A stretch of 64,000 nt of DNA. It comes from Escherichia coli (lineage in GTDB: Bacteria > Pseudomonadota > Gammaproteobacteria > Enterobacterales > Enterobacteriaceae). Where the stretch lies: assembly GCF_003334765.1 (NCBI RefSeq), contig NZ_QOWT01000008.1, one strand, 5' to 3'. The position numbers and the translations under genes are program-made. This document shows positions 13,004-28,635 of the stretch, one piece after another; positions within the stretch are counted from its first letter, which is position 1; every line of letters begins with the position of its first letter. Under the pieces are notes generated by a model, which saw nothing but the letters and a program-made list of their open reading frames with translations, searched no databases and was not told the origin of the DNA.

Positions 13004-13780
13004 ATGTCCGAAACAAAAAACGAACTTGAAGACCTGCTGGAAAAAGCAGCAACTGAACCGGCGCACCGCCCGGCCTTTTTCCGTACTCTACTGGAATCCA
13101 CCGTCTGGGTGCCTGGTACGGCGGCGCAGGGCGAGGCTGTGGTTGAAGATAGCGCGCTTGATTTACAGCACTGGGAAAAAGAAGACGGCACCAGCGTCAT
13201 TCCTTTTTTCACCTCGTTAGAAGCACTTCAACAGGCGGTTGAAGACGAACAGGCATTTGTCGTAATGCCCGTTCGCACGCTGTTTGAGATGACACTTGGC
13301 GAAACGCTCTTCCTTAATGCCAAACTGCCAACCGGTAAAGAATTTATGCCGCGTGAAATCAGTTTGTTGATTGGTGAAGAGGGAAATCCGCTGAGCAGCC
13401 AGGAAATCCTGGAAGGCGGTGAATCGCTGATATTATCGGAAGTCGCAGAGCCGCCAGCACAAATGATTGATTCACTCACCACCTTATTTAAAACCATTAA
13501 GCCGGTGAAGCGTGCTTTTATTTGTTCAATTAAAGAGAACGAAGAGGCACAGCCTAATTTACTTATTGGCATTGAAGCCGATGGTGATATCGAAGAAATT
13601 ATTCAGGCGACGGGAAGTGTAGCGACCGATACATTACCTGGCGATGAACCAATCGATATTTGTCAGGTGAAAAAAGGGGAAAAAGGAATTAGCCACTTTA
13701 TTACCGAACATATTGCGCCATTCTATGAACGTCGCTGGGGTGGTTTTTTGCGTGACTTTAAACAGAATCGGATAATCTAA
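13004..13780 (+). CDS. sseB: SseB family protein
   Basis: ORF track 12995..13780 (GTG); ATG at 13004 gives 258 aa. Confidence 0.85.
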   Translation: MSETKNELEDLLEKAATEPAHRPAFFRTLLESTVWVPGTAAQGEAVVEDSALDLQHWEKEDGTSVIPFFTSLEALQQAVEDEQAFVVMPVRTLFEMTLGETLFLNAKLPTGKEFMPREISLLIGEEGNPLSSQEILEGGESLILSEVAEPPAQMIDSLTTLFKTIKPVKRAFICSIKENEEAQPNLLIGIEADGDIEEIIQATGSVATDTLPGDEPIDICQVKKGEKGISHFITEHIAPFYERRWGGFLRDFKQNRII

Positions 13781-13802
13781 AATATGCCGCCCAAAGGGCG
13801 GC
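13779..13802 (-). terminator. intrinsic terminator hairpin (gccgccc-aaa-gggcggc) with U-run on the minus strand; ends the leftward transcript and abuts the sseB stop
   Basis: perfect 7-bp GC stem 13786-13802 followed on the minus strand by AUAUUUU. Confidence 0.45.
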
Positions 13803-13960
13803 ATTCGGGCTTACTTGCTGCTCTGAAGGTTGTTAACCACCAGTAAATTGTCGCCGGAGAGACTCCGGTTATTATTTACCTCGGTTAACAGCGCACCAGA
13901 AACAATAAGTACGATACAAAAGCACCGTATCTTCATTGTGCGGTCCATGCGAAGACCGCA

Positions 13961-14035
13961 TCACGACAGCACCACTGGCGATATTGCCGCGATAGCAAGC
14001 GCTGTGAAACACCTGCATTTACGGCCACGGAACAT
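13961..14035 (-). CDS. candidate small ORF (24 aa, MFRGRKCRCFTALAIAAISPVVLS) with basic N-terminus and hydrophobic tail; hypothetical
   Basis: ATG preceded by AGGAAAGG Shine-Dalgarno; lies ~45 nt downstream of a predicted leftward promoter (-10 TATTAT, 14088-14093); stop overlaps the ATG of a second mini-ORF (TGATG). Confidence 0.25.
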   Translation of the reverse strand: MFRGRKCRCFTALAIAAISPVVLS

Positions 14036-14063
14036 CCTTTCCTAAAGCCAGCGCCCGTTTGCG

Positions 14064-14258
14064 AGACGGCGGAAAGGGCCGCAGTGGATAATACACTAAC
14101 AGAACAATAATAACTCTCTTTTGCTTGACAAAAAGAGAGTTACTGGCGAGTATTGTCTCCGCTGAGACGCGCTTGCATTACTACGGTAATACAACCTGCT
14201 GGAAAGGCCGCGAACCGGACCAGCAACAAAAAACCGCCTGATTTTGGCGGTTTTTTGT
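14064..14258. repeat. intergenic module copy 1: promoter -10, AT-rich 10-bp perfect palindrome, conserved core, GC hairpin terminator
   Basis: direct repeat of 14388-14582 with identical blocks (acggcggaaagggcc; ttttgcttgacaaaaagagagttactgg; aacctgctggaaaggccgcgaacc) and a diverged centre. Confidence 0.7.
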
Positions 14259-14402
14259 TTTTTAAAGGAAAGTGAATTTACATGTTTAAGTAATATCTTT
14301 TACCGGTTAGAATTTTTAATTTTGAGCAGGATTTGTTTATATTTGTCTGAATTCGGACTAATAAGCCAGGTTATTTTATTACCGAACACGGCGGAAAGGG
14401 CC
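14099..14402 (-). ncRNA. ryfA: RyfA-like small RNA (~304 nt)
   Basis: sigma70 -10 TATTAT at 14410-14415 (minus) places the TSS at 14402; transcript ends after the palindrome actctcttttgcttgacaaaaagagagt plus U-rich tail near 14099; position between sseA and sseB matches my recollection of E. coli ryfA. Confidence 0.5.
14228..14258. terminator. bidirectional GC hairpin (ccgcc-tgatttt-ggcgg) flanked by A-run and T-run, internal to ryfA
   Basis: aaaaaaccgcctgattttggcggttttttg. Confidence 0.5.
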
Positions 14403-14582
14403 GGTGTCGATAATACGCTAAATAAACAATAATTACTCTCTTTTGCTTGACAAAAAGAGAGTTACTGGTGAGTATTGTTTTGCTGTGAAGCACCTGCGTT
14501 GCTCATGTAACACAAGTCAACCTGCTGGAAAGGCCGCGAACCAGACTAGCAATAAAAAACCGCCAAATTCGGCGGTTTTTTA
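14388..14582. repeat. intergenic module copy 2 (sseA 3' region), paralogous to 14064-14258
   Basis: same block structure as copy 1; hairpin stems conserved while loops differ. Confidence 0.7.
14554..14582. terminator. bidirectional intrinsic terminator downstream of sseA
   Basis: aaaaaaccgccaaattcggcggtttttt; stem ccgcc/ggcgg with U-runs on both strands. Confidence 0.6.
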
Positions 14583-26131: not shown

Positions 26132-27250
26132 ATGCATAACCAGGCTCCAATTCAACGTAGAAAATCAACACGTATTTACGTTGGGAATGTGCCGATTGGC
26201 GATGGTGCTCCCATCGCCGTACAGTCCATGACCAATACGCGTACGACAGACGTCGAAGCAACGGTCAATCAAATCAAGGCGCTGGAACGCGTTGGCGCTG
26301 ATATCGTCCGTGTATCCGTACCGACGATGGACGCGGCAGAAGCGTTCAAACTCATCAAACAGCAGGTTAACGTGCCGCTGGTGGCTGACATCCACTTCGA
26401 CTATCGCATTGCGCTGAAAGTAGCGGAATACGGCGTCGATTGTCTGCGTATTAACCCTGGCAATATCGGTAATGAAGAGCGTATTCGCATGGTGGTTGAC
26501 TGTGCGCGCGATAAAAACATTCCGATCCGTATTGGCGTTAACGCCGGATCGCTGGAAAAAGATCTGCAAGAAAAGTATGGCGAACCGACGCCGCAGGCGT
26601 TGCTGGAATCTGCCATGCGTCATGTTGATCATCTCGATCGCCTGAACTTCGATCAGTTCAAAGTCAGCGTGAAAGCGTCTGACGTCTTCCTCGCTGTTGA
26701 GTCTTATCGTTTGCTGGCAAAACAGATCGATCAGCCGTTGCATCTGGGGATCACCGAAGCCGGTGGTGCGCGCAGCGGGGCAGTAAAATCCGCCATTGGT
26801 TTAGGTCTGCTGCTGTCTGAAGGCATCGGCGACACGCTGCGCGTATCGCTGGCGGCCGATCCGGTCGAAGAGATCAAAGTCGGTTTCGATATTTTGAAAT
26901 CGCTGCGTATCCGTTCGCGAGGGATCAACTTCATCGCCTGCCCGACCTGTTCGCGTCAGGAATTTGATGTTATCGGTACGGTTAACGCGCTGGAGCAACG
27001 CCTGGAAGATATCATCACTCCGATGGACGTTTCGATTATCGGCTGCGTGGTGAATGGCCCAGGTGAGGCGCTGGTTTCTACACTCGGCGTCACCGGCGGC
27101 AACAAGAAAAGCGGCCTCTATGAAGATGGCGTGCGCAAAGACCGTCTGGACAACAACGATATGATCGACCAGCTGGAAGCACGCATTCGTGCGAAAGCCA
27201 GTCAGCTGGACGAAGCGCGTCGAATTGACGTTCAGCAGGTTGAAAAATAA
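26132..27250 (+). CDS. ispG: 4-hydroxy-3-methylbut-2-en-1-yl diphosphate synthase
   Basis: 372-aa ORF with C-terminal Fe-S Cys motifs ([16 protein letters not shown]). Confidence 0.95.
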
Positions 27251-27252
27251 TA

Positions 27253-27345
27253 ACGTGATGGGAAGCGCCTCGCTTCCCGTGTATGATTGAACCCGCATGG
27301 CTCCCGAAACATTGAGGGAAGCGTTGAGGGTTCATTTTTATATTC
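27253..27345 (+). ncRNA. sroE: possible SroE-like 3'-UTR-derived small RNA between ispG and hisS
   Basis: 110-bp intergenic region; my recollection that an ~90-nt sRNA maps between gcpE(ispG) and hisS; boundaries approximate. Confidence 0.3.
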
Positions 27346-27360
27346 AGAAAGAGAATAAAC

Positions 27361-28635
27361 GTGGCAAAAAACATTCAAGCCATTCGCGGCATGAACGATT
27401 ACCTGCCTGGCGAAACGGCCATCTGGCAGCGCATTGAAGGCACACTGAAAAACGTGCTCGGCAGCTACGGTTACAGTGAAATCCGCTTGCCGATTGTAGA
27501 GCAGACCCCGCTATTCAAACGTGCGATTGGTGAAGTCACCGACGTGGTTGAAAAAGAGATGTACACCTTTGAGGATCGCAATGGCGACAGCCTGACTCTG
27601 CGCCCTGAAGGGACGGCGGGCTGTGTACGCGCCGGCATCGAGCATGGTCTTCTGTACAATCAGGAACAGCGTCTGTGGTATATCGGGCCGATGTTCCGTC
27701 ACGAGCGTCCGCAGAAAGGGCGTTATCGTCAGTTCCATCAGTTGGGCTGCGAAGTTTTCGGTCTGCAAGGTCCGGATATCGACGCTGAACTGATTATGCT
27801 CACTGCCCGCTGGTGGCGCGCGCTGGGTATTTCCGAGCACGTAACTCTTGAGCTGAACTCTATCGGTTCGCTGGAAGCACGCGCCAATTACCGCGATGCG
27901 CTGGTGGCATTCCTTGAGCAGCATAAAGAAAAGCTGGACGAAGACTGCAAACGCCGCATGTACACTAACCCGCTGCGCGTGCTGGATTCAAAAAATCCGG
28001 AAGTGCAGGCGCTTCTCAACGACGCTCCGGCATTAGGTGACTATCTGGACGAGGAATCTCGTGAGCATTTTGCCGGTCTGTGCAAACTGCTGGAGAGCGC
28101 GGGGATCGCTTACACCGTAAACCAGCGTCTGGTGCGTGGTCTGGATTACTACAACCGTACCGTTTTCGAGTGGGTGACTAACAGTCTCGGCTCCCAGGGC
28201 ACCGTGTGTGCAGGCGGTCGTTATGACGGTCTTGTGGAACAACTGGGCGGTCGTGCAACACCGGCTGTCGGTTTTGCGATGGGCCTCGAACGTCTTGTAT
28301 TGTTAGTACAGGCCGTTAATCCGGAATTTAAAGCCGATCCTGTTGTCGATATATACCTGGTGGCTTCAGGTGCTGATACACAATCTGCGGCTATGGCATT
28401 AGCTGAGCGTCTGCGTGATGAATTACCGGGCGTGAAATTGATGACCAACCACGGCGGCGGCAACTTTAAGAAACAGTTTGCCCGTGCTGATAAATGGGGT
28501 GCCCGCGTTGCTGTGGTGCTGGGTGAGTCTGAAGTGGCTAACGGCACAGCAGTAGTGAAGGATTTGCGCTCTGGTGAGCAAACGGCAGTTGCGCAGGATA
28601 GCGTAGCCGCGCATTTGCGCACGTTACTGGGTTAA
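27361..28635 (+). CDS. hisS: histidine--tRNA ligase
   Basis: 424-aa ORF with GTG start; class II aaRS motifs. Confidence 0.95.

Follow-up and report, generated by a model that had tools for sequence, protein, structure and literature searches.

Positions 27251–27360 of the window (the entire 64-kb stretch of Escherichia coli DNA that was analysed) form the spacer between ispG (gcpE; coding sequence 26132–27250, plus strand, according to both the ORF list and the K-12 annotation of b2515) and hisS, which starts with a GTG codon at 27361. The ispG stop codon TAA occupies 27248–27250 and is directly followed by a second in-frame TAA. By the ORF list, the spacer from the ispG stop to the hisS GTG is 110 bp long, exactly as claimed in the original prediction. 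A cmscan search of the whole window against Rfam identifies a single family in this region, sroE (RF00371), which matches 92 nt at 27250–27341 on the plus strand with 116.6 bits over model positions 1–92 of 92, i.e., with more than twice the gathering score of 51; the match on the minus strand has only 16.1 bits, and no other Rfam family is detected within 27150–27450, even at E <= 10. SroE has the same orientation as both flanking genes. In E. coli K-12 MG1655 (NC_000913.3), the ncRNA gene sroE (b4761) lies between hisS and ispG; its annotated coordinates, 2640595..2640686, correspond to 27341..27250 of the window (window position = 2667936 minus the genome coordinate). A 310-bp query spanning the spacer is 100% identical to the K-12 sequence and occurs as a single copy in every one of the 5426 complete E. 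coli genomes.

Thus, the covariance model and the reference annotation agree that the spacer encodes SroE, and the feature is a known one that has long been represented in Rfam and in the K-12 annotation, given that the same 92 bases are identical to, and annotated in, K-12. Compared with the SroE type locus (RF00371, K-12 b4761), the sequence, coordinates, neighbours and strand are all equal, with no difference. The original prediction had pointed to a reported RNA of ~90 nt named SroE between gcpE (ispG) and hisS; this identification was right, as attested by the end-to-end Rfam match and by b4761 on the same bases, and the sequence comparison that it suggested yields identity with the annotated K-12 gene. 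SroE was reportedly first described in an E. coli RNomics screen in 2003. In the database entries, SroE is a small RNA whose function is unknown, with no mention of a hisS transcription start at SroE position 46.

Folding of SroE gives a minimum free energy of -40.1 kcal/mol, compared with -23.65 +/- 3.48 kcal/mol for 200 dinucleotide shuffles (z = -4.73; 0 shuffles equal the native value), and the two-hairpin structure predicted in this way exceeds chance. The reverse strand folds comparably (z = -4.91), as is expected for hairpins, and the assignment of SroE to the plus strand follows from the position of the U-run and from the disparity of the Rfam scores. Hairpin 1 (27260–27278, plus strand) consists of GGGAAGCG, a CCU loop and CGCUUCCC, which in the predicted fold form a perfect 8-bp stem closed by a 3-nt loop (-14.1 kcal/mol for the fold of 27260–27279). 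Hairpin 2 together with the adjacent UUUUUAU covers 27288–27341 on the same strand; its outer stem pairs UGAACCC (27288–27294) with GGGUUCA (27328–27334), the predicted energy of 27288–27334 is -21.7 kcal/mol, and the U-run UUUUUAUAUU abuts the outer stem. When the 5' arm is removed, the remaining part (27295–27334) is predicted to fold with -9.2 kcal/mol. A second copy of GGGAAGCG is located inside hairpin 2 (27316–27323, plus strand); this copy is lineage-specific and does not act as a conserved partner in an antiterminator. The strings quoted in the original prediction are all located where it placed them, namely gggaagcgcctcgcttccc/GGGAAGCGCCTCGCTTCCC at 27260–27278, gggaagcgttgaggg/GGGAAGCGTTGAGGG at 27316–27330 and the U-rich stretch ttcatttttatatt/TTCATTTTTATATT at 27331–27344. 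One detail of its description needs correction: the second of the segments that it calls complementary repeats the left arm GGGAAGCG directly instead of complementing it. The label "3'-UTR-derived" appears to fit the anatomy of the element, judging by a 5' end that coincides with the final nucleotide of the ispG stop, the ispG strand and a terminator-like 3' hairpin.

The linker between the two hairpins contains the hexamer TATGAT (27282–27287, plus strand), which matches the -10 consensus in 5 of 6 positions and was recognized both in an alignment of 21 Enterobacteriaceae spacers (hereafter A1) and by a script scan. At a distance of 18 bp upstream, the script scan of all loci finds the -35-like hexamer ATGGGA (27258–27263, plus strand; 3/6), which is the candidate -35 element of the hisS promoter and is carried in part by the left arm of hairpin 1. 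In some genera, this hexamer reads TTGGGA or TTGTGA, and the arrangement nTGGGA-N18-TATGAT scores 8–9 of 12 (8/12 for ATGGGA-N18-TATGAT in E. coli). Two genome-wide maps place a transcription start of hisS-yfgM-bamB at G27295 on the plus strand. Kim et al. 2012 list a start at NC_000913.2 2638663(-), assigned to 'sroE', for which the -50..+1 sequence ends with ...GTATGATTGAACCCG (...TATGATTGAACCCG; ...CCCGTGTATGATTGAACCCG), which identifies it as G27295 (PMC3415461). SMRT-Cappable-seq, a method that reads primary transcripts at full length, gives the same base as start 2640641 (NC_000913.3, reverse strand) of the unit b2514|b2513|b2512, i.e., hisS-yfgM-bamB (PMC6131387). The support in both maps is modest (6 reads in Kim et al.). 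G27295 lies 8 nt 3' of TATGAT and 66 nt 5' of the hisS GTG, at position 46 of SroE, and is the base that directly follows the 5' arm of hairpin 2 (27288–27294). Further downstream, the ribosome-binding region of hisS (AAAGAGAAUAAAC) and the GTG occupy 27342–27363 on the plus strand and are found Enterobacteriaceae-wide in A1.

Thus, a sigma-70 promoter of hisS sits within SroE, with hexamers suitably spaced from a start that has been mapped by two independent methods; the poor -35 match (3/6 in E. coli) counts against this assignment. Both the promoter and the mapped start inside SroE were overlooked in the original prediction. A general promoter and terminator scan of the E. coli spacer calls nothing: the promoter, at 8/12, falls under the 9-of-12 threshold of the scan, and the terminator is missed because the loop of hairpin 2 is longer than 8 nt. 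At the 5' end of SroE, Kim et al. 2012 report no start in the surrounding 100 bases (26387xx) and one start 45 nt further in (PMC3415461), and the portion of the Cappable-seq supplements covered here holds no entry matching this region. Candidate promoters for a primary start at 27250 were considered and rejected: TTGACG (27225–27230) and AATAAT (27246–27251) are separated by 15 bp and would direct a start at about 27258, and TTGACG/TTGATA-N17-TAACGT, seen in three other genera, would direct an even later one, so that neither fits 27250.

The stem of hairpin 2 is G+C-rich and is directly followed on its 3' side by the U-run, as in intrinsic (Rho-independent) terminators. In Enterobacter, the hairpin 2 homologue is minimal, consisting of GAACCC-ATTCT-TTGGGTTT followed by TTTTT, and is called as a canonical terminator. 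The position of G27295 relative to this structure separates two kinds of transcripts. Those that come from ispG contain both arms of hairpin 2 and so can stop there, which would give the 3' end of SroE. The hisS mRNA that starts at G27295 lacks half of the terminator stem and therefore would not be stoppable by hairpin 2; in the folding model, such an RNA forms the inner stem only (-9.2 kcal/mol), with the 9 nt GAGGGUUCA interposed between this stem and the U-run. The available maps of transcript ends show passage through this site. In SMRT-Cappable-seq, the units ispG-hisS-yfgM and rodZ-ispG-hisS read through into hisS, and no listed unit ends after ispG (PMC6131387). The portion of the Term-seq tables covered here (Adams et al. 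2021, PMC7815308) contains 3' ends within hisS and ispG and none at 2640595. As far as these tables reach, the read-through units and the lack of a Term-seq 3' end indicate that in E. coli the hairpin 2 terminator is leaky; it may even work with very low efficiency, or else the 3' end of SroE may arise otherwise. The same part of the Term-seq tables includes strong 3' ends within the hisS coding sequence, at 27502 and 27653 of the window (NC_000913.3 2640434 and 2640283), i.e., at distances of 141 nt and about 290 nt from the start of the gene, which may reflect premature termination or processing.

Analysis of 80 hisS-containing loci, from Escherichia to Vibrio, reveals ispG directly upstream of hisS in every one (80/80), with a spacer of 13–411 nt. 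RF00371 reaches the gathering score in 19 of these loci, all from Enterobacteriaceae and always between ispG and hisS; no scanned locus from the other Enterobacterales or from Vibrionaceae attains it. In A1, the two outer stems, the linker GTGTATGATTGAACCC, the sequence GGGTTCATTTTT and the ribosome-binding region of hisS are invariant or nearly so, and TATGAT with its flanks is unchanged in 21/21 Enterobacteriaceae; the inner part of hairpin 2 is freely variable, and Enterobacter lacks it. Pairing in the annotated stems amounts to 96.8% across the 21 Enterobacteriaceae versus 25–57% with slid partners; hairpin 1 has 95.8% of cells paired and the outer stem of hairpin 2 has 97.9%, and changes on both sides are seen in 2 pairs only, both in hairpin 1. 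The small number of double changes at such a high level of pairing indicates that the structure is maintained mainly by sequence invariance, beyond the needs of folding. The stems being nearly invariant, covariation is slight, so that the comparative data cannot separate constraint at the RNA level from constraint at the DNA level. Much of the conservation of the SroE sequence can be attributed to the promoter and start of hisS that lie inside it, so the element is more than a fragment of a 3' UTR.

Apparent insertions of ERIC-like repeats, judged by eye, are seen in several spacers of the collection (L006, 2316–2500; L048, 2256–2500; L054, 2261–2500; L076, 2090–2500), and the spacers of L006 and L054 score under the Rfam gathering threshold. 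Such an insertion occupies the loop of hairpin 1 in Pseudocitrobacter, lies within hairpin 2 in a Klebsiella sp. and, in Photorhabdus caribbeanensis, splits the -10 element as TATA / insert / TATAAT. In another spacer (L008), a terminator-like element made up of hairpin 1 with CACGTTATTT on its 3' side is called on the minus strand (2447–2425); this call is probably meaningless because there is no convergent gene at this place.

Beyond the Enterobacteriaceae, a hairpin directly follows the ispG stop codon in nearly all Enterobacterales, with unrelated sequences. The spacers of Yersiniaceae, Pectobacteriaceae, Hafniaceae, Morganellaceae and Budviciaceae resemble the SroE region in the presence of this post-ispG hairpin, a hisS promoter, a GGGTTCATTTTT-like sequence and a ribosome-binding site, but are not members of RF00371 and have a near-consensus promoter within hairpin 2, in contrast to the weak TATGAT promoter of Enterobacteriaceae, which is upstream of hairpin 2. 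Specifically, the script scan identifies TTGAAn-N18-TATAAT, a 10/12 match, in about 20 loci outside Enterobacteriaceae, from Rahnella, Serratia, Yersinia, Pectobacterium, Brenneria, Dickeya, Edwardsiella, Photorhabdus, Proteus, Budvicia and others; the -10 element ends 31–40 nt before hisS in most of these distant genera and farther upstream in a few, and the Rahnella promoter is also called by the general scan. These promoters have a CGGGTTCATTTTT-like sequence on their 3' side, and in Rahnella, Serratia plymuthica and Pectobacterium/Brenneria a complementary 5' arm (TGAACCCG) is present upstream of the -35 element, so that the hairpin arms bracket the promoter. The same logic applies to both groups: ispG is followed by a hairpin, and hisS transcription starts at a place that leaves the 5' arm out of the mRNA; it is the position and the strength of the promoter that differ between Enterobacteriaceae and the other Enterobacterales.

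The sequence GGGTTCATTTTT (27328–27339 of the window; L022 2466–2479, as well as L027 and L029) is retained from E. coli to Rahnella, Serratia and Hafnia, in a changed context. In these more distant genera, the consensus TATAAT immediately precedes it, which places it at the discriminator/start position; in E. coli, it comprises the 3' arm of the terminator and the U-run, and the equivalent of TATAAT reads CGTTGA. In the Vibrionaceae and Orbaceae loci (L059–L080), ispG and hisS are adjacent and the spacer is mostly 17–54 nt long (71–104 nt in three Photobacterium loci), i.e., mostly too short for a pair of hairpins; in these bacteria, hisS is presumably either part of an ispG transcript or served by a promoter located within ispG.

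These observations make it likely that the spacer, besides encoding SroE, is a compact junction between the ispG terminator and the hisS promoter, with SroE as its stable RNA product. According to this model, the polymerase arriving from ispG would copy hairpin 2 in full, with both of its arms, and in part of the cases would stop at the U-run. The resulting ispG 3' ends would then be trimmed, most likely by an endonuclease that cuts within the AU-rich AAAAAUAAUAAC, which would leave the stable 92-mer with its two hairpins. The polymerase that starts at G27295 would make an RNA without the 5' arm, and the hisS mRNA would accordingly be immune to a terminator that overlaps its own promoter. The invariance of the family would then reflect stacked constraints, namely promoter DNA, terminator RNA and the hisS ribosome-binding site, and not a demonstrated trans-acting seed. 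SroE itself would thus most likely represent a stable by-product left by the 3' end of ispG, and any Hfq-associated role would be minor at most. In Salmonella, the SroE region is required in TraDIS libraries (Barquist et al. 2013, PMC3632133), and the promoter of the essential hisS gene would account for this requirement, with no need for an RNA function.

A further proposition, which is considerably more tentative, is that the RNA as such may contribute little to the family-wide conservation of SroE: the element would be a terminator-embedded promoter with the start just inside the 5' arm, in a junction that has been rebuilt as Enterobacterales evolved. An arrangement of this kind would partly stop transcription coming from ispG upstream but leave that of hisS, downstream, unaffected.

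The foremost alternative, an unlikely one in our assessment, is that SroE is a trans-acting, Hfq-associated sRNA derived from the ispG 3' UTR that pairs with mRNAs or sponges the stationary-phase sRNA SdsR. Its anatomy fits that of type-II 3'-UTR sRNAs, with a 5' end at the stop codon and a terminator apparently common to the parent mRNA. Both features, along with some reported Hfq association, resemble those of CpxQ, SroC and SdhX, which are processed, Hfq-dependent sRNAs of this type, and Kim et al. 2012 place no start site at the 5' end of SroE. Unlike CpxQ, SroC and SdhX, it lacks a validated target, seed or phenotype, has a short U-run (5 U, then AU) and overlaps the promoter and 5' UTR of a downstream essential gene. 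The single-stranded linker GUGUAUGAUUGAACCC is invariant and of a kind frequent in sRNA seeds, but the -10 element and the mapped start account for this invariance. Part of the evidence for a role in trans comes from nitrogen starvation, where SroE is among the 26 Hfq-associated sRNAs at 24 h (PMC12539622) and sdsR:::sroE chimeras are recovered by RIL-seq, with at most 70 per library at N-24 (PMC10954441). Such recovery on Hfq with SdsR counts against a pure by-product, which need not show chimeras of this kind. However, SdsR accounts for about 1/3 of all chimeras at N-24 and has 124 mRNA partners, so that one further partner is weak evidence, and the 'sroE' annotation spans the first 47 nt of the hisS 5' UTR, so that the SdsR chimeras may come from the hisS mRNA. 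Furthermore, the predicted whole-length duplex of SdsR and SroE has an energy no better than that of dinucleotide shuffles (z = -0.17), and SdsR pairing was rejected on the ground of this whole-length prediction. In the INTERFACE study, which calls SroE uncharacterised, 9/10 predicted targets were unbound in vitro and the tenth, ligB mRNA, was bound weakly (PMC6172242); overexpression of SroE produced no phenotype in biofilm, motility and fimbriae screens (PMC4606813), and the level of SroE is equal across nutrient conditions (PMC12266141). Generally, the literature contains no established function for SroE, and a trans-acting role is unproven, with thin support. If real, such a role would link ispG/hisS transcription to stress regulation and would be compatible with the junction model.

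It is far less probable that SroE is a cis-acting attenuation leader of hisS, either sensing tRNA-His in a T-box-like manner or switching through the two copies of GGGAAGCG, with the 92-mer being the prematurely terminated leader. Other 'Sro' RNAs are terminated riboswitch leaders, a precedent in favor of this possibility. A cis-regulatory, T-box-like leader of hisS has been proposed by Barquist et al. 2013, and SroE indeed constantly adjoins the essential hisS on its upstream side and is needed in the TraDIS libraries (PMC3632133). Moreover, in E. coli, CGCUUCCC is able to pair with either copy of GGGAAGCG, in competition with the terminator, and the read-through from ispG into hisS provides a fraction of transcripts that a terminator could modulate. 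The parallel with known synthetase attenuators (the hisS T-box of Firmicutes, the his leader peptide) consists of the position before a synthetase gene and the terminator-like hairpin; SroE differs from them in that it matches no T-box and has neither a conserved antiterminator nor a His-rich leader ORF, and in that the hisS start bypasses the terminator. Each of the specific variants was rejected. The T-box-like leader has no Rfam counterpart, SroE being the only family detected in 27150–27450 at E <= 10, and hisS attenuators of the T-box type are discussed for Firmicutes only (PMC2965389). As G27295 lies past the 5' arm, hisS transcripts from the proximal promoter are always devoid of the terminator, which is present only in the read-through from ispG. 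For the switch between GGGAAGCG copies, the alternative pairing of 27271–27278 with 27316–27323 is 60.1% paired in 21 genera, the level of shuffled and slid controls, and the interior of hairpin 2 that it involves is variable elsewhere and deleted in Enterobacter. For the His-codon leader peptide, the sole plus-strand ORF of the spacer is 27297..27437 (46 codons), whose ATG lies 2 nt after G27295 and which overlaps the hisS start out of frame; this ORF is probably spurious given that its ATG is not conserved in other genera. The portion of the Term-seq tables covered likewise shows no 3' end at hairpin 2 (PMC7815308). Thus, a T-box or attenuator role for SroE is not supported.

The least probable explanation, that the hairpins are a structured 3' end shielding the ispG mRNA from exonucleases and the 92-mer is a decay intermediate without a terminator or promoter role, agrees with the finding that nearly all Enterobacterales have a hairpin behind the ispG stop although its sequences are unrelated, with the lack of a termination peak in the portion of the Term-seq tables covered (PMC7815308) and with the RepRanger classification of sroE as containing a REP-like palindrome (PMC12306157), but leaves unexplained the base-for-base invariance of the linker and the two concordant start maps, and is at odds with the textbook terminator formed by the Enterobacter homologue of hairpin 2.

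Taken with the structural and comparative data, the two start maps show that the 3' half of SroE is the 5' UTR of hisS and its middle is the hisS -10 element, yet target screens still treat SroE as an uncharacterised sRNA. Deletion or mutation of 'sroE' will disturb hisS, an essential tRNA synthetase gene, and reads or chimeras credited to 'sroE' may derive from the hisS mRNA. If the design of this junction is general, some annotated intergenic 'sRNAs' would be footprints of junctions and not regulators. The value of these findings as a discovery is small; the gain is interpretive and comes from the combination of two start maps with structural and comparative data.

The same Rfam search identifies four further RNA features elsewhere in the window, all at the gathering score: ryfA (13779–14082, minus strand, 314.9 bits), IS128 (14214–14422, minus strand, 262.1 bits), iscRS, the iscR stability element (6295–6404, plus strand, 138.1 bits), and naRNA4, a REP-like nucleoid-associated RNA (5507–5578, plus strand, 72.2 bits). 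All of these are known E. coli features.
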